A stretch of DNA of 64,000 nt from a virus: IMG/VR virus record IMGVR_UViG_3300038393_001317. One strand, given 5' to 3'. The first letter of the stretch is position 1; each line of letters opens with the position of its first letter. Made by a program: the position numbers and the translations under genes. The notes under the pieces were generated by a model. It did not search any database and was not told where the DNA came from. It saw only the letters and a list, made by a program, of their open reading frames with translations. Below, piece after piece: positions 10,732-27,900 of this stretch.

Positions 10732-11375
10732 GCGTTCGAGCCGCGTCCCAGCAGGTCGAACTTGCGCAGAACCATGCGCCGCGGCAGGCGCATGCCGGCG
10801 TGCTTGTTGCGGTCGTTGGAGAACGGCCCGAAGCAGTAGTACTCCTGGTACTTGACGCCCTCGATGGTGTAAGCCTTGCCGCCAGGCGGGGCGCCATCCG
10901 CCCAGGTGAGGCGGCCATTCACGTCGACGGTGGGCAGGCCGCCCTCGACAATGTTCTCGTTGTTGTCGAACCAGAACACCCGGGTGAACTCCTTGACCGC
11001 GCCGTGCATGCGCTCGCTGGGCGCGCCGCGAATCATCGCCAGGGTGAAGTTGTCGGTGCTGGTCTCGCACAGCACGCGATCGAACATGCCAATCTCGTAC
11101 AGGGGCGAGTCCTCGGGGATAGACAGGACCATGTCGCCCTGCTCCCAGCGGCCGAATTTGGCCCATTGCTGTTGCACGTTGGAGCTCGCCACGCCGGCCA
11201 GGGCGCGCGTGCCAGGCCCCCACAGGTAGCCCTTGCCGAAGCACTTCGGGCAATTCGCCTTCGGCGACAGCGACGCCGGGTTGAGGCATGGGCAGGCCGA
11301 CGCGCGGCGCCAGTTGAAGTACTCGCCCAGGTTGCCCAGCAGCTCGTTGAACGCGCCCGGGTTGAACTGCATCAC
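10728..11375 (-). CDS. structural-module protein with CxC...CxxCxGxG zinc-finger-like motif
   Basis: 215 aa containing ACPCLNPASLSPKANCPKCFGKGY. Overlaps the upstream gene end. Confidence 0.7.
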   Translation of the reverse strand: MMQFNPGAFNELLGNLGEYFNWRRASACPCLNPASLSPKANCPKCFGKGYLWGPGTRALAGVASSNVQQQWAKFGRWEQGDMVLSIPEDSPLYEIGMFDRVLCETSTDNFTLAMIRGAPSERMHGAVKEFTRVFWFDNNENIVEGGLPTVDVNGRLTWADGAPPGGKAYTIEGVKYQEYYCFGPFSNDRNKHAGMRLPRRMVLRKFDLLGRGSNA

Positions 11376-12478
11376 AGCACTCCCATGCGGATGCCGTGGA
11401 TGGCGGACATGAGACCGCCGTTCGAGCCCTTCGGCCCGTTGATGATCGCGTTCACGTCATCGTGGTACTTGCTCATGTCGTTGCTGAAACTCTGCGACAT
11501 GCCGTCGGCGCTGATCGAGCCGGACGCCGGCATGAAGCGATCGCCGATGATCTTGAGGGCGGCCTTCTTGAGCACCAGGTCGACCAGCTCAGGGTAGTCC
11601 TGGTTCGCATTCGCCAGGCCGGCGATGTAACGCACCTCGAGCGCCTGCGGCAGGCGCCGGCTCGAGAAAAGCTGCATGATCGAGGCTGACAGCGACGACA
11701 TGCTCAGCGCGTTCGTCGGCACGATGCGAATGTGGCCGTACTTCCGGTCGACGCGCAGCCAGTCCAGCGGAAAGTCATAGGTCACCGTGCCCGGCGCCGG
11801 ATAGATCATCTTCGCCGACGTGATGCTGATGATGGGTTTCTGGCGCGTCGAGAAAAAGCCCCAGGTGTCGCCCAGGAAGTCCTCGGGCCCGAAGTCATAG
11901 CCCGGGTCGATCGCCCACGGCATGCCTGGCGTGAGCGCGGCGAGCTCGTCGCTCGTCGGGTCGTGCGGGAACATCGCCGTCGGCTGGAAGAACACGCGCA
12001 GCTCGCGCTGGGCCTCCGCCTCGGCTGCGCGAATCTTGTCCCAGATGTAGTCGTCGCTGACGGCCACCTTGGGCATGATGCCGGCGGCCGCCATGAGCAG
12101 GCGATCGCCGCGCATGCGCTGCACCGCGGTGAACCGGTTCGGGAACAGCGCGGTGCCGAGCTGGACGGCATCCTCGGCGTCCTGCTTGATGAACAGGCGC
12201 AGCACAATCTCGTCCTGCAGCCCGCCGACCGTCAGCCAGGTGCCGCGCACGACGTACCACTGGCCCTCGACGCCTCCCGACAGCTCGATCGAGCTCGTGC
12301 GCTCGTCGTGCGACGCCGAGACCTGGGTCAGGCCGGCCGGCACGGTCCAGGCGACGCCGGCGAGCTCGTCGTCGGCGGGAAACAGGTCGCCCAGGTCAAA
12401 GTTGTAGACCTTGACCGCGTCCTTGTCCTTCTCCGCCGTCGGCGTCTCGAGTGCTACGTTCACCTCGGTCGTGCTCAT
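11372..12478 (-). CDS. head-tail connector/adaptor candidate
   Basis: 368 aa. Lies after the giant repeat gene (ATGA-type overlap 12475/12478) and before neck/tail genes. Function by position. Confidence 0.6.
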   Translation of the reverse strand: MSTTEVNVALETPTAEKDKDAVKVYNFDLGDLFPADDELAGVAWTVPAGLTQVSASHDERTSSIELSGGVEGQWYVVRGTWLTVGGLQDEIVLRLFIKQDAEDAVQLGTALFPNRFTAVQRMRGDRLLMAAAGIMPKVAVSDDYIWDKIRAAEAEAQRELRVFFQPTAMFPHDPTSDELAALTPGMPWAIDPGYDFGPEDFLGDTWGFFSTRQKPIISITSAKMIYPAPGTVTYDFPLDWLRVDRKYGHIRIVPTNALSMSSLSASIMQLFSSRRLPQALEVRYIAGLANANQDYPELVDLVLKKAALKIIGDRFMPASGSISADGMSQSFSNDMSKYHDDVNAIINGPKGSNGGLMSAIHGIRMGVL

Positions 12479-15400
12479 TTGCTGCCGTCCTTTTCCAGCT
12501 TGAAGATCGTAGTGTCACGCTTCAAGGAGAACGAGTCGCCCGCGGCGTCGGGCGCCTTGGGTTGCGCGCGCACCTTGAACGTGTCGCCCTCGGTGAGCTT
12601 GAAGCCCTGGCCGCGGGCCGGACCCAGGAACACCTTGGAGCCCTTGACCCCCACTGCGCCGGCGCGCGGCGTGATGGGCGTATCGCGGCCAGCCGTCGGC
12701 GCGCTCGAGCTCGAGGCGATCGACCCGGAGCCCGGCGTGACGACGGCGGAGGTCTCCGCGGCGCCCTGGCGACCCGTGACCGAAACCTGGGAGACCGCCG
12801 GCGTGATGTAGCGGTCGAACGCCGTGCGCGGCGCCGTCGACGCGAGCGCGAGGGCCGCGGCGCCAGGAGTACGCTCGTACCCCGGCGTCGGCACGTAGCC
12901 GGTCGCCACGAGCTGGGCGCGCGCCGGCGTGATGACCAGGCCCTCGAAGTCGCCGCCGGCGATCGACTGCAAGACCGCGGCGCCAGTGCCCGGCGTGAGC
13001 TCGTACGCGCTGGGCGCCACGCCCTGGCGGCCCGTTGCAGCGACAGCGCCGACGGCGGGCGTCACCACGGCGCCGCGCTGGGCGGTCACCTGGGCACCGA
13101 CGGACGCCACGGTACCGGCGCCAGGCGCCCGGGCGTTGTCGGTCAGGCGCTGGCTCGCGTAGCCGGTCGCCGACGCGGTGCCGGTAGCGGGGAACACGAC
13201 GGCTCCGCGCACGATGACCGGCGCCTTGCCCTGCGCTGACACGCCGGCGGTGTTTGGGACCGTCGAGCGCACTACCAGCGGCGCAGCGCCGGCGATCGAC
13301 AGCGACGCGGCGCCGGGCGCGCGCGGGGCGTCGCCGGCGTCGGCCACCTGGCCGCCGGTCGTCGCAACCAGGCCGCTCGAGGGAACGCGCACGATGCCGA
13401 CGGTGATCGCCGGCACCTGGCCGAGGGCCACGGCAACGCCGGAGCCTGGAATCGAGCTCTGCGTCGCATCCGGAGCCGCGGGAGCGATCGCCACGGCGCC
13501 GGCGACGGGCGCCCGGGCGTGATCGGTGACGCGCACCGGCGCCACGCCGGCGATCGACACCTGAGCCGCGGCGGGAACCACGGTGCGGCCGCGGACCATG
13601 ACGGGCGCCTTGCCCGTGATGACCATGGCCGGCTTGGTGCCCGGCGTGATCGAATCGAAGTGCACGATGCTGGAGCTCGCGCCGGCGGCCTGCATGGACG
13701 CGGACCCGGGCGTCACGGCCTGGCCGTACGACAGCGTCGGGTCGCCGCCAAGCACGCGCAGCGGCGGCGCATCGGGCGCCGACACGCGGCCGGCAACAAC
13801 GACGGCGACTTGGCCGGCGATCGCCGCGGCTCCGGAGCGCGTCACGTTCGACTCGCCGAACTCGAGGACGGCGAGCTGGCCGTCCACCAGGGGGTCACCG
13901 GTGGGGGGCTCGATCACGCGACCATCAACCAGAACAGGAGCTGCGCCGATTGCCGCCAGGTCGCCGGCGTTGTCGCTGATGCCGGTATCGAACAGCGGCA
14001 CGCGTCCGGTCACCAGCGCGGCGCCGGCGCTGGGCGTCAGCGGCACGCCGATCGACGGCGTCGCCTGCACGCCGGCGAACGCGACGGCGCCGGCGCCAGC
14101 CACGATCGTGTCCTCGCGGAACAGCGTCGGCTCCTGGCCGTCGAGGTCAATGCGCCCAGCCGCCGGCGGGTCACCGGTTTGCTGCAGGAGGACCACCTGG
14201 CCGGTGGTCGTCGTCGTGCCGCGGCTGGGCGTGATGAAGCGCTGCACACCAACCGTCGGGCCCTGGCCGATCGAGCTCAGCGTGTCGCCGTCTGGCGTCA
14301 CGAAGGATTGACGCGTCACGGCCGCTGCCTGGCCGGCGATCGCCGCGGCGCCGGTCGACGGCGTGCGGATGGTGTTTCGAATCAGCGTCGGCGCATTGCC
14401 GGACAGCGTCGCGGCGCCGGCGCTCGTGGTCTGCACTGCGCCGCGCGACGCCGTCGCAGCCTGGCCCGTTGCGGCGAGGCCGCCAGCGCTGGGCGTCAGG
14501 ATGAAGTTGCGCGCAACCGTGGCCGCCTGGCCGGCGACAGACGCAGAGCCCGCCGACGGTTGGCGCGGCCAATCAACGACGCGCGTCGCCTGCTGACCGC
14601 TAGCCGCAACAGCGCCCACGGACGGCGTGATGTTGCGCGCGACCGTGACGGACGGCGCAGCGCCGGTCAGCGTCAGCGTGCCGTCGCGCGGACCGTCCAT
14701 GTTGGGGAAGGCGACGACGATGCTTTGCTGGAATGGCGCGCTGAGAATGGACGACTGGTTCAGGCCGTAGTACCAGGTCCAGGTGTCCGTCGTGCCGCTC
14801 GGGTTGTTGCCGGCCTGGTAGGCGACCTTGACGTAGATGTACTCGCCCTGGGCCAGCGTGAAGGCCGGCGCATCCCAGGTGATCGGCACGTTCACGGTCA
14901 GGTCGTTGCCGACCCAACCCGTGGCGCCGAACTGAGCGCTCACCAGGACCGCGGTCGTGAGCTCGGTGACGACCTCGTTCACGTCCGGCGCCGCGACGTG
15001 TTGCCCCTTGAACACGCGAACGCGCAGCGTGCCCTTCGGCTTGGTGGCGCCGTCGCCGGAGCCTTGTAGCTTGAAGTTGAATACCCAGGTGCCGGCCGAG
15101 AAGTTGCCGAACTCCCCGTTGCTCATGAAGGCGCCGCCCTGGTTCTCCTTCAAGTTTGCGTCCGGCTTAGCGCCGGTCGTGGCGGTGGTCGACAGCGTTC
15201 CGTTGACGAACGCCATGTAGTCGCCGGACGCGGCGTTCGCAAGGTCCCAGCCGGTGCCCGACAGATAGCCCGGGAACGTGTACCAGTCCGCCGTCAGCTT
15301 CGCGTAGGTCTGGCCGGAGAACGACACGCCGTCGTCCATGTACCAGGTGAACAGGCCGGTCTCGACGTAGTCGGGCGTCTGGCCGGCGGTCGCGATCGCG

Positions 15401-18354
15401 CCCGCAGTCGGCGTGCGCGAGTACGAGATGCCAGGGCCGGCCTGGTTGCCGGCGACGACCACAGCTCCAGAGGTCGGCGTGAGGATGGTCTGACGCGTGA
15501 CGGACGCCGCCTGACCGGTGACGGCCGCGGCACCGACGGTCGGCGCGCGGATGATTTGCTGCGTCGAAGAAGCCGCGACGCCGGCGACGGTCACCGACCC
15601 CGCGGGCGGCGCGATCGTGTCGGAGCGAACGATGGTCGGAGCGGCGCCGGCGATCGACGCGGAACCAGCCGACGGCTGACGCGGCCAATCCACGACGCGC
15701 GCAGCCAGGCCGCCGGAGACCGCCGCGGCGCCTGCGCCTGGCGTGATGGTGACCGAGCTCGTGCCGGCGACGCCAGTCACGGCGGCCGCGCCAACGGCCG
15801 GCGTGATCAGGCTACCAGTGAGAACCGTCGGCGCCAAGCCGACAATCGACGCGGAGCCCGCTACCGGATTCTCGATGTTGTTGTTGACCAGGGCCGGCGC
15901 GTTGCCGCTCAGCGTTACAGCGCCGACACCAGGCGTCGTCTCGCGCACGATCGCCGCGGTTGGAGAGGCGCCGGTGATAGCAGCCTGGCCGCGCGTCGGC
16001 GTGATGATGGACAGGGCCTGGAAGTCCGGCGTTTGAATCGAGGTGCCAGGGCCGGACTCGAGGACCGCCGACCCGCTGCCCGACCCGGAATTGGTCACCC
16101 GAAGGAAAATCTCGACGTACAGGTACGGAACGCCGTTGCTGATCGTGACAGCGACACCCGGCGTCACGCTCACCGAGCAGGTCTGGATACCGTTGTTGCC
16201 GACGAACGTGTTCGACCAGGAGATGGTCCCGTCACCGATCGGCGATAGCCCAGTGCCATTGAAAACGGCACTCTGGGACATGCGCACGCCCATCTGCATG
16301 GTCTCGGCAGAACCCGAGGTGTTCGCGCAGTTGAGAGCGAAGTTGAAAATCCAGGTCCCGTTGGCGAACACGCCGCTCGTGAGCTGGTTGAAAAAATACT
16401 GTGAGGTGTCGGCGCTGAGGTCGTCTGCAAACGCCGGCTCAGCCGAGCCGATGCTGGTCGTGCGCGTCGCGTTGGCCGACACGCGCATGATGTTGTTGTT
16501 AGCGGGCACATCGGTCTGGAATCCAGTCGACGTGTCTCCGCTACCAGGGTTGCCCGTGTTGAGCAGGCCCGAGTACATATAAAGCGTAACCGGCCCGCCG
16601 GTACGCGTCACAGTGACAGCCTCGCCGGTGACGGCCATCGCCGCCGCGGCCGTCGGCGTGCGAACGAACGTGATGCCGCCGCCGCTGGCGGCCCCGGTGA
16701 CGGACACAGCGCCGGCGGACGGCGTCAGCAGGCGCCCGGGAATCGGGGCGGCGCCAGCAGCGCTCATCGAGGCCGCCGCCGGCGTGATCGTGAAACCGGA
16801 GGTGCCAGCGACACCAGAAACGGCCACCGACGCGGCGCTTGGCGTCATCGTGACGCTCTGCGTGAACGCCGGCGTGTCTACGCGAGCACCATCTGGTCCG
16901 ACAATGAACACCGACGTGCCGGCGCCGCTGCCGCCGTTGGTGACGTTGCACCACACCTGCACGAACAGGTAGCCGCCGCTCGAGAAGTCCAGGGCTGGCG
17001 CGCTCCAGGTCGCGATCGCCGTCGCCTGCTGGTTGTTCGGCGGCGCGATGGACGACGACACGATGACGCCGCCGGAGACTTCGGTCAGGCCGGCGCCGGT
17101 GTTGACCGAGCTGCGGTAGACGCGAAGCCTGAAATTGAACGTGTCAGCGCCGCCTGAGCCGGAGGCGGAAACCGGGAATCGGAACACCCAGTCGCCGGCC
17201 GAGAAAGAGCCAATGAGCTGCGGCGAGATGAGGCGGTCGTTGGGGTCCGCCGCGCCTTGCGAGAGGAACGACTCGTCAATCGGCCCAGCGGTGCCGTTCC
17301 ACGTCACAGTGGACGAGCCGGCCACCATGCGCGCATAGGAGCCGGCGCCGGGAGTACCGGTATCGAATCCAGTCGCCGCGTTGCCCGCCGCCAGCGGCGA
17401 GGTCGAGAGCAAGCAGAACGTGGAGCTCGACGTGCCGGCGTCGAAGTCCATGAACCACTCGAGGCCCTTGTAATCCTCGACCGGCGCCGCCGCGGAGCTC
17501 GTGACAGCGCCGACGCTGGGCGTGATCGTAGTGTTTCGAGACGCCGTAGCTGCGCCGCCGGTGACGGCGACGGCGCCAGCGGACGGCGCGATCGTTTGCC
17601 CGATTACGCTGGCCGGCGCCACGCCGGCGGCGGTGACGGCTCCGACCGTCGGCGTGATGGTCGCCGAAAGCGGCGCCACGGTCACCGTCGGCGCCACACC
17701 GGAAAGAGTTACCGACCCGGCCGAGGGAACCTGGTGGGCGACGAAGTCCGGCGTCGTGAGCGCCGAGCCGGAGCCGTTGCGCAGGTTGATGGTCTGCGAC
17801 GCGTTGGACGCCGCGCTGACAATCTTGAGCGCCAGCGAGAAGAACAGGTACTCGCCGGCGAGCGTGATCGTGGCGCCAGGCGACCAGGTGATCGAACCCG
17901 TGAACGTCGCCGCGTTCACCGTGATGGTCGCAGACTCCTGAGTGGCGGCCGTGAGCTCGGTCAGGCCGGTTTGGCCCGTCGCATCGGTCGACTTGAATAC
18001 CCGCAGGCGCAGCGTGAAGGACCCGCTGTTGTTGTTCGATCGCGCCAGCGCGAAATTGAACGTCCAGGAGGTTGCGGCGAACACGCCGTACAGCGGCGAC
18101 GGCGTGCGGAAGGAGTCGCCCGTCGTGTTGTTGATCGACGCGTCCGGCATGGCCGTCGTGCCGGCAACGATGGTTGCGTTCGCGACGTTTGCGCCCGCGT
18201 CCATCTCCGCGTATTTGGTGGGCGCGGTCGTGCTGACAATCCAGCCCGTGGCGTTCGTGGCCGTCGTCGGCGCGGTGCCGCCGTCCTGCATCGAGCCCAG
18301 GTTGGAGCCGGATGCCGCGGTGTCCGGCAGGAGGTAGAGGGTCTTGACCGCCAT
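12475..18354 (-). CDS. giant modular repeat protein (1959 aa), candidate capsid/neck fibre
   Basis: Four ~190-210-aa modules share W(T/V/I)FNF...RLRV(F/Y)(K/R). They alternate with arrays of ~20-aa xITPxxGAxxxxGxAPxxxR repeats. Ala/Thr/Gly/Ser/Val-rich. Confidence 0.9.
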   Translation of the reverse strand: MAVKTLYLLPDTAASGSNLGSMQDGGTAPTTATNATGWIVSTTAPTKYAEMDAGANVANATIVAGTTAMPDASINNTTGDSFRTPSPLYGVFAATSWTFNFALARSNNNSGSFTLRLRVFKSTDATGQTGLTELTAATQESATITVNAATFTGSITWSPGATITLAGEYLFFSLALKIVSAASNASQTINLRNGSGSALTTPDFVAHQVPSAGSVTLSGVAPTVTVAPLSATITPTVGAVTAAGVAPASVIGQTIAPSAGAVAVTGGAATASRNTTITPSVGAVTSSAAAPVEDYKGLEWFMDFDAGTSSSTFCLLSTSPLAAGNAATGFDTGTPGAGSYARMVAGSSTVTWNGTAGPIDESFLSQGAADPNDRLISPQLIGSFSAGDWVFRFPVSASGSGGADTFNFRLRVYRSSVNTGAGLTEVSGGVIVSSSIAPPNNQQATAIATWSAPALDFSSGGYLFVQVWCNVTNGGSGAGTSVFIVGPDGARVDTPAFTQSVTMTPSAASVAVSGVAGTSGFTITPAAASMSAAGAAPIPGRLLTPSAGAVSVTGAASGGGITFVRTPTAAAAMAVTGEAVTVTRTGGPVTLYMYSGLLNTGNPGSGDTSTGFQTDVPANNNIMRVSANATRTTSIGSAEPAFADDLSADTSQYFFNQLTSGVFANGTWIFNFALNCANTSGSAETMQMGVRMSQSAVFNGTGLSPIGDGTISWSNTFVGNNGIQTCSVSVTPGVAVTISNGVPYLYVEIFLRVTNSGSGSGSAVLESGPGTSIQTPDFQALSIITPTRGQAAITGASPTAAIVRETTPGVGAVTLSGNAPALVNNNIENPVAGSASIVGLAPTVLTGSLITPAVGAAAVTGVAGTSSVTITPGAGAAAVSGGLAARVVDWPRQPSAGSASIAGAAPTIVRSDTIAPPAGSVTVAGVAASSTQQIIRAPTVGAAAVTGQAASVTRQTILTPTSGAVVVAGNQAGPGISYSRTPTAGAIATAGQTPDYVETGLFTWYMDDGVSFSGQTYAKLTADWYTFPGYLSGTGWDLANAASGDYMAFVNGTLSTTATTGAKPDANLKENQGGAFMSNGEFGNFSAGTWVFNFKLQGSGDGATKPKGTLRVRVFKGQHVAAPDVNEVVTELTTAVLVSAQFGATGWVGNDLTVNVPITWDAPAFTLAQGEYIYVKVAYQAGNNPSGTTDTWTWYYGLNQSSILSAPFQQSIVVAFPNMDGPRDGTLTLTGAAPSVTVARNITPSVGAVAASGQQATRVVDWPRQPSAGSASVAGQAATVARNFILTPSAGGLAATGQAATASRGAVQTTSAGAATLSGNAPTLIRNTIRTPSTGAAAIAGQAAAVTRQSFVTPDGDTLSSIGQGPTVGVQRFITPSRGTTTTTGQVVLLQQTGDPPAAGRIDLDGQEPTLFREDTIVAGAGAVAFAGVQATPSIGVPLTPSAGAALVTGRVPLFDTGISDNAGDLAAIGAAPVLVDGRVIEPPTGDPLVDGQLAVLEFGESNVTRSGAAAIAGQVAVVVAGRVSAPDAPPLRVLGGDPTLSYGQAVTPGSASMQAAGASSSIVHFDSITPGTKPAMVITGKAPVMVRGRTVVPAAAQVSIAGVAPVRVTDHARAPVAGAVAIAPAAPDATQSSIPGSGVAVALGQVPAITVGIVRVPSSGLVATTGGQVADAGDAPRAPGAASLSIAGAAPLVVRSTVPNTAGVSAQGKAPVIVRGAVVFPATGTASATGYASQRLTDNARAPGAGTVASVGAQVTAQRGAVVTPAVGAVAATGRQGVAPSAYELTPGTGAAVLQSIAGGDFEGLVITPARAQLVATGYVPTPGYERTPGAAALALASTAPRTAFDRYITPAVSQVSVTGRQGAAETSAVVTPGSGSIASSSSAPTAGRDTPITPRAGAVGVKGSKVFLGPARGQGFKLTEGDTFKVRAQPKAPDAAGDSFSLKRDTTIFKLEKDGSK
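12478..14721 (-). repeat. repeat array R4 (about 748 codons of ~20-aa TPxxGA units)
   Basis: residues 1212-1959 of the giant protein, counted by hand. Confidence 0.7.
15355..16011 (-). repeat. repeat array R3
   Basis: Residues 782-1000. Contains VVDWPRQPSAGSASIAG, which recurs in R4 as VVDWPRQPSAGSASVAG. Confidence 0.7.
16591..16854 (-). repeat. repeat array R2
   Basis: residues 501-588. Confidence 0.6.
17464..17730 (-). repeat. repeat array R1
   Basis: residues 209-297. Confidence 0.6.
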
Positions 18355-18600
18355 TTACGCCGCGCCCAAAGAAAAAGCCGGGCGGCCGCTCACGCGCACC
18401 GCCTCGGCTTCGAGGAGAAGAAGGAGAACCGACGGGGGGCCCGTGGAGCTGCGGGTGTCCTGGCCGCGGCGCCCGATGCGTACCGGAGCGTTCACGATTG
18501 CGACGCGATCGACGCGCGCGGCAGGAGCCGGCAGGACGAGCAAAAGCGTCGCCTCCGTAGAGGCGACGCTCAGCGTCCCCGTGCCTGGCGTGATGACCAT
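18355..18600 (-). CDS. questionable 81-codon ORF, in frame with and separated by a single TAA from the giant gene
   Basis: Begins MVITPGTGTLSVAS (resembles the giant protein's repeat unit) and ends ..GAA TAA ATG. It contains a strong terminator hairpin, so it may be noncoding leader. Confidence 0.3.
   Translation of the reverse strand: MVITPGTGTLSVASTEATLLLVLPAPAARVDRVAIVNAPVRIGRRGQDTRSSTGPPSVLLLLLEAEAVRVSGRPAFSLGAA
18538..18570 (-). terminator. intrinsic terminator between 155-aa gene and giant gene
   Basis: - strand AGCGTCGCCTC-TACG-GAGGCGACGCT followed by TTTG (11-bp stem). Confidence 0.6.
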
Positions 18601-18624: not shown

Positions 18625-19092
18625 TTACGCCAGGGTGAACACGCCGGTCGCGGCCGGCTTGATCGTCAGCGTGTTGCCGGTGGTCACCGTGAAGGCGGCC
18701 GTCGACAGCGTGCAGAAGCACAGCACCTTGCCGGCGCCGGCGCCCGTCGAGTTGCGGATGACGGCGTACTTGATGTTGGTCAGGTTGCCGCCGTTCGCCG
18801 TGAACACGAGGCCCGCGGTCGAGTACGTGAACTTGAACTGCTTCGCCGACGCGCCGACGGTCCACTGGCCCGTTGCCGGCACCAGGTTGCGGCCGCCCGC
18901 GACATAGCCGCCGGTCGCCGAGATTTCGCCGGGGATGGACGCGAAGGTCGAGCGCGTCGACAGCGCGAGGATGGCGGCGGATGCCGATGCGCGGTGCAGC
19001 GACATTTTGAACACGCCGGCGCCCAGCGTGATCGTTCCGTTGCCGAAGTACTTTTTCGCTTTCGCGTAGATTTTCCAGGTGCCAGCAGCCAT
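18625..19092 (-). CDS. small virion protein (155 aa), function unknown
   Basis: GGAGC SD, G/T/A-rich beta-type sequence, followed by a terminator. Confidence 0.75.
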   Translation of the reverse strand: MAAGTWKIYAKAKKYFGNGTITLGAGVFKMSLHRASASAAILALSTRSTFASIPGEISATGGYVAGGRNLVPATGQWTVGASAKQFKFTYSTAGLVFTANGGNLTNIKYAVIRNSTGAGAGKVLCFCTLSTAAFTVTTGNTLTIKPAATGVFTLA

Positions 19093-19104: not shown

Positions 19105-20544
19105 TTAGGCTTCGATGGAATCCGCCGCCAGGTCGGCGCCGGTGTTGAGAATGTGGGTCAGGAGCCCGTCGCCGTACATCTCGAGCTCGAACTCGTTGCC
19201 CAGGACCTTGATCAGGTCCATGAACTCCTGAGCCTGAGCGACCATCCAGGGATGGCACTTGAAGATGCGGCCGCCGACGATCAGCGGCGTGACGACCGGG
19301 CCGTCGTTTTCGGGTTGCGAGTAGGCGTGATGCGCCTCCTCCTCGGACAGGCACGAGTCGCACCCGAACAGGTGGTACTTCTTGAAGCCGAGCATGCGCA
19401 GCAGCGGGATGGCGCGCAGCAGCACCGTGGAGCCGCCGGGCACGCCGTACCAGATTTCGTCCGTGTACTGCGCGTTGAGCTCGGCCTGAATCATCTCCGC
19501 CGTGGTGTGCCAGAGCAGCACCTGGTCGTGCGGGATGCCTTCGAACACGCTGGGGTCGCACTGGCTCGCCAGCATGTACTTGCACGCCGGCACCGGGCGG
19601 CGCGTGAAGCGCGCGTTGAACGGGCGGGCGTCGACCATGATGAGGGCCGACGGCGTGATGCCGTTGTCCAGGCACCAGTCGTGCGCGCCGTTCAGGCAAA
19701 TCAGCTTGACGCCGGCCTCGCGCAGCTTGCGGATGGTCTCGACCTGGCCGGCCAGGCTGGGCCCGCCGCCGACGATCATGACCTCCACGTCATTGGTCTC
19801 GTGCGGCACGGCCTGGGTGTAGCCCTGGGCGATGTTGTGCCGCACGTTGGCGCGGACCTCGTCCTCCGCCATGTTCAGCGTGCCGACTTCGACAATGTCG
19901 GTACCCGTCGACCAGGCGCTCACGTAGAAGCAGCAGGCGTTGTCGCTCTGCGCGCTCCAGTGGATGATGCAGCCGCGTTCGGTGAACTTCTTGAGCCACC
20001 ACTCGTACGGGTGCACCGACAGGTGCAGGGGATGGCCGATCAGCGCGCCGCACACGTCGTCTACCGTGCTGATTTGGTAGAACACGTGCTGGGCCGCCAT
20101 CAGCGTGTTGTCCAGGACCGCGTCGACGTGCTCGGGCGGAATGTGCTCGAGCACGTCGGTGCAGTAGCCGTACTCCGCGTTCGCCGGCAGCGGCTTGGTG
20201 AGGTCCGCCTCGAGGAAGCGCATGGCGTGAGCCTGCGTCTCGAGCATCGGGCGAATGTCCTCGTCCAGGCAGTTGCTGGCGAAGTCCAGCATGGTGACGT
20301 TGAGACCGTTGAACGCCAGGGCGAACGAGCCGCGGCCGGTGCCGCAGCCCATGTCGAGGATGGTCGAGCCCGGCTTCGGGCGCGCCACGTCGAAGAACAT
20401 GGGGACCATGTCCTCGCCCGGGGCAACGGCGCGGTATTCCGGCCGCTCCCACATCTGGCGGTAAATGTCCGCCTCCGCCGGGCGGGCGGGGGCGATGAGC
20501 ACCTGGGGCGGCGCTCCTTCGATTCCGGTCTCTACGGTTTGCAT
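19105..20544 (-). CDS. class I SAM-dependent methyltransferase fused to DUF115/MptE-like (Maf-type glycosyltransferase-like) domain
   Basis: N-terminal motif I ILDMGCGTGRGS with CTDVLEHIP. C-terminal VMIVGGGPSL...KLICLNGA...ITPSALIMVDA...GGSTVLLRAIPLLRMLGFKKYHLFGCD matches the hallmarks I know for Maf/DUF115. Confidence 0.7.
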   Translation of the reverse strand: MQTVETGIEGAPPQVLIAPARPAEADIYRQMWERPEYRAVAPGEDMVPMFFDVARPKPGSTILDMGCGTGRGSFALAFNGLNVTMLDFASNCLDEDIRPMLETQAHAMRFLEADLTKPLPANAEYGYCTDVLEHIPPEHVDAVLDNTLMAAQHVFYQISTVDDVCGALIGHPLHLSVHPYEWWLKKFTERGCIIHWSAQSDNACCFYVSAWSTGTDIVEVGTLNMAEDEVRANVRHNIAQGYTQAVPHETNDVEVMIVGGGPSLAGQVETIRKLREAGVKLICLNGAHDWCLDNGITPSALIMVDARPFNARFTRRPVPACKYMLASQCDPSVFEGIPHDQVLLWHTTAEMIQAELNAQYTDEIWYGVPGGSTVLLRAIPLLRMLGFKKYHLFGCDSCLSEEEAHHAYSQPENDGPVVTPLIVGGRIFKCHPWMVAQAQEFMDLIKVLGNEFELEMYGDGLLTHILNTGADLAADSIEA

Positions 20545-20597: not shown

Positions 20598-21122
20598 TTA
20601 GAACACCTCGGGCTGGCCGTCGCCGGCGCCCGCGGGCTTGCTTTCCTGCGTGCCGGCGCCAGCGCCCGCACCTTCGCCGCCGGTGCCCGTCGACGCATTC
20701 GCGTCGCCCGTGCCGGGCGTCATCTCGCCGCCGCCGGCCGCGCCGGAGGCTTGCTGTTGCTGGCCGGCGCCGTTGTCGCCGCCGGTCTGCTTGTTCTTGT
20801 CCTTCGAGTCCTTCTTGGTGGACTTGGAGGTCGTCGTCGTGGCCGCCTGGCCCGTCGATGCGGAGCTCGAGCCCGCGCCGGCGCCGGTACCGGTGCCGCC
20901 GTCGACGTGCGAGCCGGTCTTTTCACCGGGTTGCTGGTGGACGCCCTTCGGCGCGCCGACGAGCTCGTAGCCGCCCACGCTGATGAAGTGCTGCGCCACG
21001 TCCGGGTCGATCGGCTCGGACACCATGCCGTGACCGTCGGGATGCTTCTCGAACTTCACCCCGTTGATTTCGTCGCTCGCGTTGGGGCGCTTGCAAATGA
21101 CCTTGACCTTGTTGCTGCTCAT
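20598..21122 (-). CDS. hypothetical head-module protein with long G/A/T/S/Q low-complexity tail
   Basis: 174 aa with a globular N-terminus (MSSNKVKVICKRPNASDEINGVKFEKHPDGHGMVSEPIDPDVAQHFISVGGYELVG). Immediately after the MCP terminator. Confidence 0.75.
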   Translation of the reverse strand: MSSNKVKVICKRPNASDEINGVKFEKHPDGHGMVSEPIDPDVAQHFISVGGYELVGAPKGVHQQPGEKTGSHVDGGTGTGAGAGSSSASTGQAATTTTSKSTKKDSKDKNKQTGGDNGAGQQQQASGAAGGGEMTPGTGDANASTGTGGEGAGAGAGTQESKPAGAGDGQPEVF

Positions 21123-21206: not shown

Positions 21207-22712
21207 TTACTCGCCGGTGTGCGGACGCCAGAGCGCGTTGCTGGGCAACACGTTCTTGATGTAGCCGTGGTGCTTCGGCTTGGTGATCCGCAGGTAGCCG
21301 AACAGGAACTGGAACCAGGAGATGACCGGCATGCCGCCGATGCCGAACGGCAGCGGAATCTTGGTCATCGGCTGGAACTGGCGCCAGCCGATCGCGTCGG
21401 CCGAGCGGTTCATGTTCAGCAGCGGGACGGCCGTGGTGCCGGGAATGTTCTGGTTCTCGTCCACGTAGACCGTGGTCGCGCCAGCGCACTTCACCGTCGC
21501 CATCAGGCGGAACTCCGACGTGGTGTTCACGCCGTCCTGCTTCGAACGGAAGATGCGGTAGCCCGTTTCCGTCGCCGCGCCGGAACGCGTGATGGTCAGG
21601 GTCACCTTGTTGCCCGCGGCCACCGCCACCTGGGCGGACTTGGTCAGCGCGGTCATGCCTTCACCGCTCGCGCCGATCGACTCGACGGCGTAGTAGTAGT
21701 TGCCGGCACGGCCCGCGGTGAAGTAGTTCGCCGGGGTACCCGCGGCGGCCACACCGGCGATCGACACCGGCTTGAACGCCACGTTGGCCGCGGCGATCGC
21801 CGCGAAGTTCACCTCGAACGGGGACTGCATCGGGTGCGCCTCGTCGTGGATGAACGTGTCCATGTGCGTCTTGAGCACGCCGTTCGTCAGGCGGATGCCT
21901 TCGACGTGCGCGCCGACCTGGGGCGTGTTCTGGCCCGGGCCCCAGCGGAACGCCGGGTCGAGGCCCATGTTCAGGTCGTTCTGCACCGAGTTGGGCAGGT
22001 ACACGTCCGTGCTGCGGCCCCAGGAACCGTAGCGGGACACCGCCACGTTGATCTTGGAGAAGGGCTCGACGGAGTCGAGCTTCGCGCCGTTCATGTTCAG
22101 CACGCACTCGGCGGGCATCTCGCCGGCAGCGATCGAGTCATCGAGCTGCTTGAAGATGCCGTCGTACTGCGTCGGGCTCGCGCTCGAATCGCCGTAGAAC
22201 AGCAGGTACTCGGCGTCCGTCAGGAGCTGCAGGGCACCGTTGCGCTCCTCGACCGCGGTCGCTTCCACGATGTTCTTGCCGATGTTCAGCACGTAGCCGA
22301 CCTGGCGCAGCGTCATCAGGAACTTGACCAGGCCGATTTCACGGCTGTAGTCGCCCTGCGCAGCGCGCACGACGCCCATCTGGGTGTTCGTGGTGCCGCC
22401 CAGGAAGCCGCCCACGCTGGTCTGGCGCGAGTACTCGTCCACGATGTTCGTGGCGTTGGTGCTCTGGAGCTGGTTGAACAGGATGAAGTGTTCGTTCTCC
22501 TGGATGGTCGTTTTCATGGCCGTGTCCAGGGACTGCACGCCGAGCGCGCCGCCGCCCGTGAGCGTCGCCACGTCGGTCTGGTAGTTGCTCGCCTGGAGCG
22601 CCTTCTGGAGCTCCTCGAACTGCGAGAGGGCGCCGCCTTGCGAGCCGCCCAGAGCGGCGCCGGCGCCGCTTGCAGCCGCCATGCCCGCGAATTGCTGGAG
22701 AAGTTGTTTCAT
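21207..22712 (-). CDS. major capsid protein
   Basis: 501 aa from ATG 22712 (GAGG SD). The track start 22823 adds Arg/Pro-rich shadow overlapping the scaffold gene. Order is protease-scaffold-MCP, followed by a strong terminator. Confidence 0.8.
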   Translation of the reverse strand: MKQLLQQFAGMAAASGAGAALGGSQGGALSQFEELQKALQASNYQTDVATLTGGGALGVQSLDTAMKTTIQENEHFILFNQLQSTNATNIVDEYSRQTSVGGFLGGTTNTQMGVVRAAQGDYSREIGLVKFLMTLRQVGYVLNIGKNIVEATAVEERNGALQLLTDAEYLLFYGDSSASPTQYDGIFKQLDDSIAAGEMPAECVLNMNGAKLDSVEPFSKINVAVSRYGSWGRSTDVYLPNSVQNDLNMGLDPAFRWGPGQNTPQVGAHVEGIRLTNGVLKTHMDTFIHDEAHPMQSPFEVNFAAIAAANVAFKPVSIAGVAAAGTPANYFTAGRAGNYYYAVESIGASGEGMTALTKSAQVAVAAGNKVTLTITRSGAATETGYRIFRSKQDGVNTTSEFRLMATVKCAGATTVYVDENQNIPGTTAVPLLNMNRSADAIGWRQFQPMTKIPLPFGIGGMPVISWFQFLFGYLRITKPKHHGYIKNVLPSNALWRPHTGE

Positions 22713-22753
22713 GTGAACCTCGTTGGGAAGTTGTGGGCTGGTTTTCGCAGGGC

Positions 22754-23458
22754 TTAGGCCGCCTTGGCCTTCGCAACCTTGGAAATCAGGTCGGTGGGAA
22801 CGGGCTGGCCGGAGCGCAGGCACACGTCGATCGTGGTGAGACCGACGCCGTCGATCAGCTTCTGGTCATAGGCGGAGTGCGCCTTGAGCATGAACTCCTC
22901 GGCCGACACTTCCGCGCCGCCCTCACCGCCCTTGGCGAGCGTGCCTTCGCCGCCCTGGCCGCCTTGGCCCTGGCCGCCGGCGCCCGCGCCGCCCTTGTCG
23001 TGGATGGCGATGACCGTCTTGCGGCCGCGCCCTTCGCCGCGCAGAGCGGTGACCTGCTCGCCCAGCGACTTGATCATGGCGTTCTGCTTGCCGATCACGT
23101 CCATGGTGATCGTCAGCGACTTGGTGAGCGCCGCTTCGGTGTTGTCCAGGCGCGCCGTGAGCGCCTTCACCAGCTCGGTGCCGTCCTCGGCCTCGACCTC
23201 GGTCCCGTCGGCCAGGGTGACCTTGAGGGACTTGGTGAGCGTCTGGCCGCCTTCGCCGCCTTCGCCGCCGGCCGCGCCGCCTTCGCCCGCGCCGGCACCT
23301 TCGCCCGCACCGGCCTGGCCTTCGCCGCCGCCTTCACCACCTTCGCCACCCGCGCCGGCACCGGCGCCTTCGCCGCCCGCCGGAAGCGACTTCGCGAGGG
23401 TATCCGTGCCTGCCTGGGCCTGCTCGAGGTCCGCCAGCAGCTTCTGGAATTGACTCAT
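22754..23458 (-). CDS. scaffolding protein candidate
   Basis: 234 aa from ATG 23458 (ATGA overlap with protease stop). Coiled-coil-like segments flank two acidic Gly/Glu/Ala tracts. Position is protease->MCP. Confidence 0.65.
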   Translation of the reverse strand: MSQFQKLLADLEQAQAGTDTLAKSLPAGGEGAGAGAGGEGGEGGGEGQAGAGEGAGAGEGGAAGGEGGEGGQTLTKSLKVTLADGTEVEAEDGTELVKALTARLDNTEAALTKSLTITMDVIGKQNAMIKSLGEQVTALRGEGRGRKTVIAIHDKGGAGAGGQGQGGQGGEGTLAKGGEGGAEVSAEEFMLKAHSAYDQKLIDGVGLTTIDVCLRSGQPVPTDLISKVAKAKAA

Positions 23459-24381
23459 GATTTGCTCCGTTTGTTGAGACCAGTTTTCAAATCGCGCACG
23501 AAGCGCTCGACCCATTCAGCCGCTTGGTCGGACGGCAAGCTGAAATGTTTGGCGGCGTACGAGACGAGCTCGTTCGCACCGGGGTTCTCGCCGACCACGC
23601 CCGTGCGGACGTACTCGGCCAATTTCTCGCGGAACTCGTGGTAGTTCCTGGGGGCCTGGCCGCGATCGAGCGACTGCATGCCCAGCGCGGCGCCGCCGGT
23701 CTTGGCGGCCGCGTCCGTTGCGTAGCTGGCCTCGAGGGCTTTCGCCAGGTCGAAGCCGTCGGCGCCGAAGCACTTCGCGAACGCGCCCATCGGCAGCGTT
23801 GCGCACTCCGGCACGTGCTGGTTCACCGGCGTCTTGCTGAAACCGATGTTGGTCCAGCGGACCTTTTGGACGATCGCCTTGCGCAGCTTGGTCGCAGGGT
23901 CGATCACGACCTTGGTCGCGGACTTGTCGATCGCGCCGCCGACCGACGGGTACCAGCGCTGCGGCGGCTGGAGCTCGGTAAGCGACGACCAGAACTCATT
24001 GGCGCGCGCGGCCGCGATGCCGTCGCCGGCGTAAATCTCGCACTTGACGAACGTCGACTTGCCGTTCTGGCGCACGTCGACCGGCCGGCCAATCTCGTAC
24101 AGGTTCGCGTCCGGGATGCCGGGCCAGCCCTTCGCCGGGTTCGGCTTGCCGATCAGCGTGTAGTGCTCGAGGTCGATGTTGCCGTAGCGCTTGAAGTACT
24201 CGGCGGACTCGGCGAGCGCCTTCGCGGCGACCACCTCGTTTTGCTGGTCCAGACCCTCGTTGCTGGCCTCGCAATACAGGAACCGGCGGCCGCCATCCGT
24301 CGACGGCGTCGCCTTCAACATCGAGCCGATGCTGATAAACGAGGGGACGGCCGCGAGCAGGCTTTCGTCGGACTGCAACAT
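23455..24381 (-). CDS. prohead (maturation) protease candidate
   Basis: 308 aa upstream of scaffold/MCP, with segments such as EASNEGLDQQNEVV and IDLEHY. Assignment is mostly positional. Confidence 0.6.
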   Translation of the reverse strand: MLQSDESLLAAVPSFISIGSMLKATPSTDGGRRFLYCEASNEGLDQQNEVVAAKALAESAEYFKRYGNIDLEHYTLIGKPNPAKGWPGIPDANLYEIGRPVDVRQNGKSTFVKCEIYAGDGIAAARANEFWSSLTELQPPQRWYPSVGGAIDKSATKVVIDPATKLRKAIVQKVRWTNIGFSKTPVNQHVPECATLPMGAFAKCFGADGFDLAKALEASYATDAAAKTGGAALGMQSLDRGQAPRNYHEFREKLAEYVRTGVVGENPGANELVSYAAKHFSLPSDQAAEWVERFVRDLKTGLNKRSKS

Positions 24382-24934: not shown

Positions 24935-27900
24935 TCAAAAAAGAGCACCAGGGGAATCCGCCTCGCGCACCTGGCGCTCGCGCAGGAACTGGGCGATGCC
25001 GGTCTCGTCCAGGCCCTCCAGGCTGGAGGTCATGAGGTCGCGCAGGCCGTATTTGCGTTGCAGGCGATCGCGGGCGCGGTGCACCTCGGGATGGTCCGGA
25101 ACGGCGTCGATCAGCTCCACGTCGTTTTCCTGGCCGGTGCGGAAAATGCGGCCGTTGCGCTGGGCGTGCGTCATGGCGGTCATCGGCGTGTCCGCCTGGT
25201 ACAGCCACTGGCCGCGCTGCACGTTCATGCCGGTCGCGCCGGCGTCGGACGCCACCAGAATGTCCGCCTGGGCCTCGCCCTGCTCCGGCTTGAACATGCG
25301 GCGCTTGCGCTCCTTCTCCTTCGGGCCGTCCTTGCCGGTGATCGTGACCACGCGATGGCCGGCCTTCTCCAGGCGCTCGGCCAGCATCTGGACCTGCTTG
25401 AGGGAGTGCGCGAACACCACGCCGGGCTTTCCCTTGCGCTCGGCCGCCTTCGCGACCAGGTCGTCGGCGATCGGGTTGTCCTCGTGCTCCATGATGGTCC
25501 GCATGACCGCGGACGACTTCATGATGCCCAGGCTTTGCTGGAGCTCCTTCGCGCGGGCCTGGTGCGCCGACTCCTCGAGGCCGTCGAATTGCTGCGGCGC
25601 GATCGCCTTCATGGCGTCCACGTCGACGCGGCCCTGGATTCGCGCGATGCGCGCCCGGGTGAAGTGACCCTCGAGCTCGGCGAGCGCCTGGCGCTGGCCG
25701 GCCGACAGCGCGAGCTTCGACTCCTTGCGGTCGGCGTGCACGTCCGGGTCGATCTTGCTCGGGAAGATGTAGCGCGCCATCTCGCGGCGCAGGGCGTCCT
25801 TCGACGCCAGGGTGTCGGCGCCGTAGCGGCGCATGAACTCGCCGCGATCGCGGTACCGCGCCGGGTCCATCTTGCGCATGAGGTCGAACACCTCGCTAGC
25901 GTCGTTCTTGACCGGGTCGCCGCTGGCCGTCACGTAGTACGGCGTCACGTCCGGATGCGACAGCGCGTCGACCACATTCGCCAGGCTCGAGTTTTCCTTG
26001 CCGGCGCGGTTGAGGGTGTTCTGGCCCTCGTCCACGTTCAGGTAGTCGTAGCTGATGCCCTCGCGCTCGAGCGTCGCCTTCATCCAGTCCTTGCGCTCGT
26101 CGTCCGACATGGCCGCCACGCGCGCGGTCATCTCGTCGGGCGAGACGCCGGCGTGCTGGGCCGCCAGGTGCATCATGTCGTCGCGGAACGACTGGTGCGT
26201 CATGACCGTGAAGTGGTTGCTCGCGTCCTTGTGGGCCTTGATGCGCTCCTCGCGGCTGGCGCCGGGCTCGATATGCCACTTGTACTTGCCGGGCTCGAGG
26301 TAGCGCAGCGCCTCGCCGGCGAACTGGCCCTGCACGATCGACGGCACCAGGAACAGGCCGCGCTTCGCCTTACCCTGGCCGTGCAGGTGCGAGTAGGACG
26401 CCAGGCCGAGCAGGGTCTTGCCGGAGCCGGTACCGAAGGCTGCGACCACGCGCTTGTTCGCGTCGATCAGCTTGACCAGGCGCTGTCGCGCGGCGTTCTT
26501 GCCGCCCGACATGGTCGGCTCCCACAGGCGCAGGGGCTGGCCGGGCTTGAAGTTGCGGCCGACGACGCCCATCATGCCGGCGAGCTGGCGCTCCGCCTCG
26601 TGGCCGATGGTGTAGCGCTCGTCGCCGGCGAGCTGGGGTTCCTGGTCGCCGGCGGCCGCGGGGGCGTCCTCGGTGGAGAAGAACCCCATCTGGGCCTGCT
26701 CCAGCGCCTCGTTTTTCTCGCGGGCGGCGTCCAGCTTGTCGGAGACCGCGCCGGCGGCGTACTTGCCGGCGGAGCGCTCGCGCAGGCTGTCCACCAGGGC
26801 GCGCTCGCGGGCCATGCGCTCCTCGCGCGCGGCCGGGTCGACGGCGTCCAGGTGGTTCAGGTTGTTGCGGATGACCGTGCGGCCCAGCTTGAGCGGCGCC
26901 CGCGGGTTCAGCTTGTTGTGCGCCTCGAGGAACGACTTCGCGACACGCGAGCGAATCAGGTCCTGCACGGCCTGGTACGCCTTTTCGTTGCCGTGCATGG
27001 CCTCGACGTACTTCGCCCAGTCCAGCGATGCGCTGCCCACCTTGGCGGCCAGCTCGTCGCGGCGCGCGCGCCAGTCGGCCCAGGCCGGGTTCTCGGTCTC
27101 CTCGCCGAACATATCGCCGACGGTCTTTTCCGGCTCCGCGGCGACGTGGTCCTCGAGCTCGCGGCGCATGTTGCCGGCGTCGGGGCTTTCCTTCGCGACG
27201 TTGCGGTAGAAGAACTCGCGCAGCGCGCGCTGGTCCTGCTGCTCGAGCTCGCCGAGCTGCTTGAACGCGGCGACGCCCTCCGGCGTTTCCGCCAGGGCGC
27301 GGTGCAGCGCGTCCACGCTCACCTGGTCGACGTTGAACTTCTGGCGGTTGATCGCCTGGCGCCCGTTCGGATGCCGGCGCTGCATGAACACGTCGGCGTA
27401 GCCGTCGAAGTCACCGGCCAGGGCTTCGGCGCGGCGCGGCTTGCCGCGGCCGTCCTTGAGCGGGGCGACGGCGTCGAGCGCCTTGCGGTACTCGTCCGCG
27501 CGATCGGCGCCGACCTTGTCGAAGAACGCCGCCGACTGAATGTCCGCGACTATGTCGCCGGGCGTGTCACCGTCGGCCGCGCGGCCGCCGATGTAATCCA
27601 GGAGCGACTGCTCGAGGTCGGCGCCAGGCGTGAAGGGCTCGGCCAGGCGCGGCGCGACGCCGGGCTTCACGTCCATGGCGAGGTCGGGCCGGCGCGCGAC
27701 GCCGATCGGGAGCCAGCCGTCCTCGTCCTGGTCGCCGCGGATGATCGCCAGGTTGCGCTGGACCTGCTCCACGTCGGCGCGGTCGATCGGCTTCGCCAGG
27801 CGATCGAGGCCGGCGCCGGTGACGGTCAGGAACGTGTTGCCGCCGGCGGTGTCCACCTGGTATTCGCCGCGCTGCAGGCCGATCGCGCGCACCTGGGTGA

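Follow-up and report, generated by a model that had tools for sequence, protein, structure and literature searches.

The bacterial motility accessory factor (Maf) enzymes, among them the Magnetospirillum magneticum protein of PDB entry 5mu5, GkMaf of Geobacillus kaustophilus and CbMaf of Clostridium botulinum, O-glycosylate Ser and Thr residues of a repetitive surface filament protein, the flagellin, in the cytoplasm and before the filament is assembled. Activity of 5mu5 requires the residues E324 and D415 as well as a conserved Ser (S334 in CbMaf, S356 in GkMaf), and besides their native donors these enzymes can use the cytidine monophosphate (CMP) sugars CMP-Kdo (Kdo, 3-deoxy-D-manno-octulosonate) and CMP-Neu5Ac (Neu5Ac, N-acetylneuraminic acid) (bioRxiv 10.1101/2020.06.03.131540). 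In the tripartite system of Maf-2, GlfM and flagellin, Maf needs a small, adjacently encoded specificity factor in order to bind its acceptor (bioRxiv 10.1101/2023.12.03.569772). Among phages, methylation of the mycobacteriophage tail protein Gp34, and apparently also its glycosylation with N-acetylhexosamine (HexNAc), is required for adsorption (PMC13445384). Here we consider a viral gene on the minus strand at 19105..20544 of a stretch of 64,000 nucleotides (the window) from IMG/VR virus record IMGVR_UViG_3300038393_001317, whose product joins a class I S-adenosylmethionine (SAM) methyltransferase (MTase) to a Maf-like domain of the PF01973 family.

Domain architecture and active-site residues

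The open reading frame (ORF) at 19105..20544 is real and encodes a fusion protein of 479 amino acids, with homologues of the same design and a G+C content at third codon positions (GC3) of 0.93 that is typical for the genes of this window of 68% GC. The original prediction had named it, from its motifs, as a methyltransferase fused to a DUF115 or Maf-like domain, and all of those motifs are present in the translation (TILDMGCGTGRGS at residues 61-73, VMIVGGGPSL, ICLNGA and PGGSTVLLRAIPLLRMLGFKKYHLFGCD). In the Pfam scan PF01973 (DUF115/MptE-like) scored 64.1 bits (cutoff 34.6; E=1.7e-17) over residues 235-401 and profile positions 4-170 of 171 (167/171), and the same hit is precomputed for all homologues listed in the protein database. 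The predicted N-terminal methyltransferase was found as Methyltransf_25 at residues 62-146, with E=1.1e-8 and 36.1 bits where the cutoff is 27. These Pfam scores above cutoff agree with sequence searches of the PDB, with structural comparison by Foldseek and with the conservation of Maf residues, so that the domain assignment is supported by four independent tests.

The methyltransferase domain extends over about residues 25-210 (19915..20472, minus strand) and has the class I features of a GxGxG motif I (LDMGCGTGRG) and an acidic residue at the end of strand beta-2. In an alignment of 34 sequences, which served both for the AlphaFold2 (AF2) model and for the definition of invariant columns, more than 100 positions are invariant, the cofactor-binding and catalytic motifs of both domains among them. 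In the methyltransferase half these include D64, G66, G68, T69, G70, R71, G72, D87, D114, D130, E133 and H134. The PF01973 domain (residues 235-401; 19342..19842, minus strand) has the motifs GGGPS, VDAR (D305), PGGST (S372) and GCDSC (D396), followed by HHAY (H405 and H406). A C-terminal extension of 78 residues (402-479; 19108..19341, minus strand) is modelled as a beta-hairpin and two long helices and has the invariant residues F428, C430 and W433; in the Pfam scan no domain and no tetratricopeptide repeat (TPR) was found in it.

The AF2 model, with a mean predicted local distance difference test (pLDDT) of 84.7, had Maf 5mu5 as its top PDB match in Foldseek (E=1.1e-11, probability 1.00), a likeness that is confined to the level of the domain (TMq, the TM-score for the query, 0.40). 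The remaining top matches were class I methyltransferases fitting the N-terminal half, among them ChlM, NodS, DnrK and TehB, and more than 40 methyltransferase structures were matched at E<1e-7. By sequence, the methyltransferase half found plant phosphoethanolamine N-methyltransferases (PMT) and the cypemycin N-methyltransferase in the PDB. Maf 5mu5 was found by sequence as well, with E=1e-3 from the single protein and E=2.7e-4 from the family profile over positions 221-404. The same profile matched MptE, the archaeal 6-hydroxymethyl-7,8-dihydropterin pyrophosphokinase (8sd5), with E=0.019 over positions 230-301 (72 positions), which cover its nucleotide-binding part only.

In the HMMER alignment the essential E324 and D415 of Maf are paired with D305 of VDAR and D396 of GCDSC in the phage enzyme, both of which are invariant in the 34 homologues. 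The invariant H405 and H406 match the HisHis that follows D415 in Maf, and the spacing from Asp to HisHis is nine residues in both. The near-invariant PGGST motif contains S372 at a distance of 24 residues ahead of D396, and the Ser of Maf lies about 23 before its second acid, an equivalence that is drawn by spacing alone. Because the SAM-binding motifs and the Maf-type residues are invariant, both halves of the enzyme look catalytically competent. The identity to Maf is about 14%. We regard the protein as a member of the PF01973 superfamily with a Maf-like catalytic domain and not as a Maf in the strict sense, because it is without acceptor-binding domains, lies outside any flagellar glycosylation island and has a methyltransferase in place of the Maf N-terminal domain.

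Some members of the family depart from this plan. P0049 (698 amino acids; L094 154-2250) has two tandem methyltransferase domains ahead of the PF01973 domain, and in P0007 (541 amino acids; L003 10001-11626) and P0012 (575 amino acids) between 50 and 90 residues are inserted between the Asp of GCDSC and the HisHis. With regard to a role in defence or anti-defence, PADLOC gave merely a generic similarity of the methyltransferase domain to mad2.

The phrog_644 partner and the distribution of the pair

Directly downstream of the enzyme gene, at 18625..19092 on the minus strand, lies a gene for a protein of 155 amino acids that matches phrog_644 over its full length (residues 1-151, E=5.4e-14). 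The protein is rich in Ser, Thr, Ala and Gly, contains no Asp and is described as beta-rich. A phrog_644 gene is found directly downstream in all 67 of the 67 loci that have a complete enzyme gene and room downstream of it, and these partners, of about 145-157 amino acids, are 63-99% identical to that of the window. In 56 of 72 loci phrog_644 genes stand on both sides of the enzyme gene, the upstream paralogue being the more divergent. The pairwise divergences of enzyme and downstream partner are strongly correlated (Mantel r=0.88, p=0.001), and the enzyme, with about 1,853 close clusters, is also matched in number by the partner, with 2,033. In two loci of one lineage (L092 and L093, 11433-12212 in both) a homing-endonuclease-like gene, with weak NUMOD3 and Phage_endo_I hits, is placed exactly between enzyme and phrog_644, and the pair has been retained despite this insertion. 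It is the enzyme and phrog_644 that form the invariable pair, because a lineage without the Thr-Pro repeat protein described below (L004-L006) keeps both.

Carrier loci range from 36% to 69% GC and belong to at least five different genome backbones, across all of which the pair is maintained. They comprise PHB04-like myoviruses (the window, L007 and L009), a contig encoding a polyvalent protein of 6216 amino acids, a lineage that encodes beta-helix tailspikes along with a protein exceeding 3000 amino acids, a podovirus with an SU10 adaptor, a contig with a GP4-type fibre adaptor and many low-GC freshwater contigs.

Homologues of the enzyme fall into more than 1,853 clusters at 90% identity, are about 475 amino acids long with the same two domains, and are almost all metagenomic; in the protein database, homologue clusters are 60-76% identical to the window enzyme over the full length. 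When the 50,697 phage genomes on deposit were searched with tblastn, the only hit was a partial one, to the methyltransferase half. With a set of peptide patterns the enzyme was found in 83 viral contigs of IMG/VR, and with the same patterns in one contig from 185,579 bacterial and archaeal species genomes, a 12-kb fragment of a metagenome-assembled genome (MAG). The family appears to be restricted to phages and seems absent from prophages and bacterial genomes. The original prediction held that such a fusion is not a standard phage feature, which is borne out for cultured phages but not for uncultured ones, where the number of clusters makes it common. More distant MptE-like proteins of uncultured Caudovirales, some of them fused to a methyltransferase, were found with Foldseek in BFVD, their names being automatic annotation. 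Among open-access papers and preprints on MptE-like, PF01973, Maf or nonulosonic-acid proteins in phages, no description of this family or of these more distant proteins was found.

A supposed split form of the enzyme in the unrelated, uncultured siphovirus MW202621 (L002 4987-7367) was not accepted, the second gene sharing only the GGxPSL loop. There, a 184-residue homologue of the methyltransferase half (40% identity, E=3e-20) is encoded directly after a Gp13-like major capsid protein (MCP) gene, and the next protein, of 277 amino acids, has a Pfam MptE-like match below cutoff (E=0.002) and an hhalign probability of 2%. It may be that this gene pair is a distant two-gene analogue, for which the case is weak.

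An exhaustive search for the wider phrog_644 family gave 428 clusters at 50% identity, nearly all of them stand-alone proteins of 140-160 amino acids. Cultured phages that have it number 220, all but three of them (217) mycobacteriophages; it always stands at the end of the minor tail block, and one record names it a minor tail protein. Marginal Pfam hits of the partner family to the podophage GP4 fibre I protein gp80 (PF23140) were rejected as evidence of a relationship, since only 3 of 47 members gave a hit, with a best E of 0.025.

The tail-fibre module

The original prediction placed the enzyme after the MCP and a protein of 174 amino acids and ahead of the 155-residue protein and a fibre-like protein of 1959 amino acids, and this order, on the minus strand, is as claimed; a head maturation protease and a scaffold-like protein are encoded upstream of the MCP. 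Its description of the locus as a capsid module is right for this window, in which the enzyme follows the MCP, but does not hold for the family, where the constant neighbours are genes of tail-fibre type. In other loci genes for tail or virion structural proteins precede the module and tail-fibre genes follow it. The closest relative in culture is PHB04, which is 78% identical in DNA from the MCP to the helicase, and has the MCP, two small genes and then the tail-fibre protein; the enzyme, 155-residue and giant genes are all missing from it, so that the module has been inserted where head and tail genes meet in this backbone. Its upstream edge is the gene for the 174-residue protein (20598..21122, minus strand), of which the N-terminal part is homologous to PHB04 gp019 and which ends in a low-complexity tail of Gly, Ser and Thr. 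The downstream edge is a tail-fibre or adaptor protein of 368 amino acids (11372..12478, minus strand), which has a Pfam Gp77 match and is homologous to the PHB04 tail fiber protein gp017. The 174-residue protein was rejected as a member or substrate of the module, as PHB04 carries a homologue of it but not the enzyme.

The fibre-like protein of 1959 amino acids (12475..18354, minus strand) contains four paralogous globular domains of about 200 residues (1-205, 295-500, 588-785 and 1000-1215), which are 24-27% identical and share the motifs GTWxFNF...RxRV...YxF...TPDF. They have no match in Pfam, PHROG or NCBIfam, and may be lectin-like binding domains. A relationship between them and the 155-residue family was considered and not upheld (hhalign probability 2.7%). 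The globular domains are separated and followed by arrays of a repeat of 22 residues, [IV]-T-P-x-x-G-x-h-x-h-x-G-x-A-P (h, hydrophobic). The original prediction counted more than 50 TPxxGA repeats, a number that was not borne out: read literally, the motif is present 14 times, where shuffled sequences would give 0.3, and a repeat profile found 14 units at an independent E-value (i-E) <0.01, or 31 when the threshold was made very lax. Only in total length would the arrays have space for some 50 units of 22 residues. Across loci, in 671 repeat units, Thr occupies position 2 in 100% and Pro position 3 in 99%, percentages that are partly circular in that the units were selected by profile. A gene for a Thr-Pro repeat protein comes next after the partner in 63 of 67 loci, the version in L020 being short, at 319 amino acids. 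In comparison with the closest relative of the window (L009), the enzyme is 93%, the 155-residue partner 99% and the MCP 90% identical, and the giant protein 42%, which is the behaviour expected of a host-range determinant.

The repeat protein and phrog_644 also occur together in mycobacteriophages that have no enzyme. In Mycobacterium phage Bipolar (L090 5959-7432) the minor tail protein gp020, which carries the same 22-residue repeat (ITP...TGGxP), is followed by the phrog_644 protein gp021, so that a shared tail-fibre module spans actinophages and phages of Gram-negative type. Since the mycobacteriophages hold the repeat and phrog_644 without the enzyme, the latter is an add-on to a tail-fibre module and not a feature of the capsid. 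The repeat protein and phrog_644 constitute an older module, and the enzyme is never found without phrog_644; such an asymmetry would be expected if the enzyme modifies and phrog_644 is its structural target or an adaptor.

The genes of the module are co-directional, with gaps of 12-53 nucleotides, and a GGAG ribosome-binding site, 12 nucleotides past the enzyme stop codon, precedes the 155-residue gene. A promoter and terminator scan of the block gave nothing above chance, with no internal promoter or credible terminator, which is consistent with late co-expression. Between the 155-residue and giant genes there is a possible ORF of 81 amino acids (18355..18600, minus strand), uncertain as a gene, the N-terminus of which (MVITPGTGTLSVAS..., the first 22 or so residues being MVITPGTGTLSVASTEATLLLV) resembles a single copy of the 22-residue repeat. 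It ends directly at the start of the giant gene, the stop codon and the ATG being contiguous (TAAATG). In L007 and L003 there are counterparts, of 86 and 77 amino acids, which are conserved at the N-terminus and poorly over the rest. It could be a real small gene, or else what is left of the fibre gene's beginning or an alternative start for it.

Some further features of the window lie outside the module. The MCP ORF (21207-22823, minus strand; phrog_752, E=5e-94) has a GTG start that overlaps the scaffold-like gene, and its PHROG match begins only at residue 61. Translation probably starts instead at the internal Met of MKQLLQQFAG..., for a length of about 500 amino acids as in PHB04 (501 codons). 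The scaffold-like protein of 253 amino acids (22754-23515, minus strand) and the 174-residue protein have long low-complexity stretches of Gly, Ala and Glu or of Gly, Ser and Thr (for example GEGGEGGGEGQAGAGEGAGAGEGG), and the PHB04 homologue of the latter has a tail rich in Ala, Glu and Lys instead. Upstream of the head genes, very large ORFs occupy 24935-45368 on the minus strand, including 24935-29512 (1525 amino acids) and 30442-36915 (2157 amino acids). Pfam hits among them, not assigned singly, are to SNF2, helicase, N6 and Eco57I-type DNA methylases, RelA_SpoT and inorganic pyrophosphatase, and the PHB04 counterparts are annotated as a helicase, a DNA methyltransferase (6.3 kb) and a Ulx-like anti-restriction protein.

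Possible function and comparison with known systems

Taken together, we would give an even chance to the proposal that this is a phage-specific bifunctional enzyme which, together with its 155-residue phrog_644 neighbour, modifies proteins of the tail-fibre module. The original prediction of a candidate virion glycosylation system, which listed the 155-residue protein among the possible substrates, is plausible and is backed indirectly by comparative genomics, that protein being the obligate, co-diverging neighbour of the enzyme and the repeat part of the giant protein the usual third gene. Late in infection, the PF01973 domain would take a CMP-activated ulosonic acid out of the host pool, which could be Kdo or a sugar of pseudaminic, legionaminic or neuraminic type, and would transfer it to Ser or Thr hydroxyls of the 155-residue protein, to the invariant Thr of the Thr-Pro repeats of the fibre, or to both. 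The fused methyltransferase would then methylate the transferred sugar or possibly the acceptor. The 155-residue protein could itself be the acceptor, or a subunit by which the fibre is presented to the enzyme. All Gram-negative bacteria have CMP-Kdo, and as Maf enzymes can use CMP-Kdo and CMP-Neu5Ac, host-supplied donors are plausible. The glycosyl-transfer chemistry, the donor, the acceptor and the methyl target are predictions, and it is from synteny that we infer glycosylation of virion proteins; adsorption, stability or recognition may be affected by it. More tentatively, and with a probability that we hold to be well short of even, a phage-only family may place methylated Kdo or sialic-acid-like sugars on tail fibres by way of host CMP-sugars, with phrog_644 as the dedicated acceptor or adaptor and the Thr-Pro repeat as a serial glycosylation site.

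Several observations weigh against glycosylation of the fibre module. The case for glycosyl transfer comes from homology, at the low identity to Maf given above, and PF01973 also includes the pyrophosphokinase MptE, so that the fold does not fix the chemistry. Neither the flagellin-binding domain nor the TPR domain of Maf was seen in the enzyme by Pfam scan or in the AF2 model. Two Pfam scans of 48 other ORFs of the window, which covers about two thirds of a genome of roughly 98 kb, found no cytidylyltransferase, NeuB/PseI-type, Kdo or epimerase families, nor were donor-sugar genes seen adjoining the module in other loci; the donor would therefore be host-derived and would be needed in all hosts. 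The presence of the 155-residue protein in the virion is argued from gene position and a single annotation as a minor tail protein. Its AF2 model (pLDDT 42), mostly beta at low confidence, is unusable because the input sequences were 83-95% identical to the query, and the phrog_644 profile found nothing in the PDB at E<=10 and has no significant Pfam match. Finally, the lineage L004-L006 carries enzyme and partner with no Thr-Pro repeat protein within 21 kb, the conservation of the repeat is subject to the circularity noted above, and the invariant Thr-Pro could be purely structural.

Other functions have to be weighed against the same evidence. The invariance of all SAM-binding motifs would also be expected if methylation of tail proteins, either the 155-residue protein or the fibre, were the main activity and the PF01973 half a module for binding substrate or nucleotide. 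The nearest sequence relatives of the methyltransferase half include enzymes acting on peptide N-termini, cypemycin CypM (E=4.5e-6) and the daptide methyltransferase, the variant P0049 has two methyltransferase domains, and methylation of a tail protein is essential for mycobacteriophage infectivity (PMC13445384). However, the PF01973 half is at least as well conserved as the methyltransferase half, a mere binding module would have no need of the invariant Asp, Asp and HisHis constellation of Maf, and other close relatives of the methyltransferase (NodS, ChlM and DnrK) act on small molecules or sugars, and we think this explanation unlikely. It is also improbable that during infection the enzyme acts on a small metabolite or on a glycan of the host envelope (that of the lipopolysaccharide core, of the capsule or of flagellin), for example in superinfection exclusion, and that its position beside tail-fibre genes merely reflects the tolerance of that region for inserted accessory genes. 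Tail-fibre regions often take up accessory genes, lipooligosaccharide is the target of the GT42 sialyltransferases to which Maf is related, and a donor pathway was not found among the scanned ORFs of the window. An independent accessory gene would nevertheless not be expected to have an adjacent partner in 67 of 67 loci, two flanking paralogues and a Mantel r of 0.88, nor to move jointly with that partner among unrelated backbones, and the family is seemingly absent from prophages and bacterial genomes.

The naming of the Pfam family after MptE, the match of the profile to 8sd5 and the generic nature of the GGGPS loop as a nucleotide-binding element would all fit an ATP-dependent pyrophosphokinase, or another phosphoryl or nucleotidyl transferase, acting on the 155-residue protein or on a small molecule that is methylated afterwards. 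We give this little credence, since the MptE match is limited to N-terminal positions of the domain but that to Maf covers the whole domain with both catalytic acids, Maf ranks first in Foldseek, and Pfam scans of the window ORFs found no folate or pterin gene context. Least probable by far is a non-enzymatic factor or chaperone of fibre assembly that has retained enzyme-like folds: the gene does stand beside fibre genes, where small proteins are often chaperones, but the invariance of over 100 positions, with the cofactor-binding and catalytic motifs of both domains all among them, argues for catalysis. The invariant Maf-type residues and the strict linkage to phrog_644 argue against each of these alternatives, to differing degree.

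The enzyme class with which bacteria "sialylate" their flagella, different from the hexosyltransferases known from phage particles, appears here fused to a methyltransferase and is under strong purifying selection in thousands of uncultured phages of 36-69% GC, none of which is in culture collections. If methylated ulosonic acids are placed on tail fibres in this way, Maf-type protein O-glycosylation would be seen for the first time outside flagella, and so would the decoration of a bacterial virus particle with ulosonic acid. Decoration of tail fibres would change current views of how phages recognise receptors, of how stable the particle is and of how host or animal defences recognise phages, and the two genes would provide a compact tool for site-specific protein O-glycosylation and methylation. 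Whatever the chemistry, the association gives a first functional and positional handle on phrog_644, with its more than 400 clusters, and identifies a widespread 22-residue Thr-Pro fibre repeat that is common to phages of proteobacterial and mycobacterial type.

Among described systems the Maf enzymes are the nearest. The phage enzyme shares with them the central PF01973 domain of modified GT-A, GT42-like fold and the equivalents of E324, D415 and the HisHis motif, and differs in having no flagellin-binding N- or C-terminal domain or TPR and in the addition of an N-terminal methyltransferase. It is encoded by phages amid structural and tail genes in all loci and not in flagellar glycosylation islands, has no adjoining sugar-biosynthesis genes, and has as its partner a protein of 155 amino acids in place of flagellin. 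By analogy this neighbour could play a role like that of GlfM, although GlfM is predicted to be a four-helix bundle and the low-confidence model of the phage protein, a member of a tail-region family, is mostly beta. MptE belongs to the same Pfam family and has the same nucleotide-binding N-terminal subdomain, but the match is partial, the Maf-type acidic residues of the phage enzyme lie outside the matched stretch, and the locus lacks a context of pterin or folate genes.

That phage particles can be glycosylated was recognised only recently, and so far only with classical hexosyltransferases in a few actinophages. Mycobacteriophages of the Che8 and Corndog type reportedly glycosylate their capsid and tail tube, and the A064R protein of chlorovirus PBCV-1 is said to be a fusion of two glycosyltransferases and a methyltransferase that builds the capsid glycan and methylates its terminal sugar. 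As is proposed here, these are virus-encoded enzymes that decorate structural proteins inside the host, and A064R likewise contains a fused methyltransferase; in contrast, they are classical hexosyl or rhamnosyl transferases of GT-A or GT-B type, with no PF01973 domain and no ulosonic acids, and their targets are the capsid and tail tube. Virion glycosylation in mycobacteriophages is also mentioned in PMC11256854. The MepM-Gp34 system (PMC13445384) resembles the proposed one in that methylation of a tail protein is needed for adsorption, in a phage group that also has the pair of phrog_644 and Thr-Pro repeat protein, but MepM is encoded by the host and is not a fusion, and Gp34, of more than 500 amino acids, is not a phrog_644 protein. 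In comparison with all of these, what is new is the occurrence of a Maf-type domain in viruses, its fusion to a methyltransferase, the obligate pairing with phrog_644 and the association with a Thr-Pro repeat, together with the abundance of the family in uncultured phages as against its absence from cultured ones.

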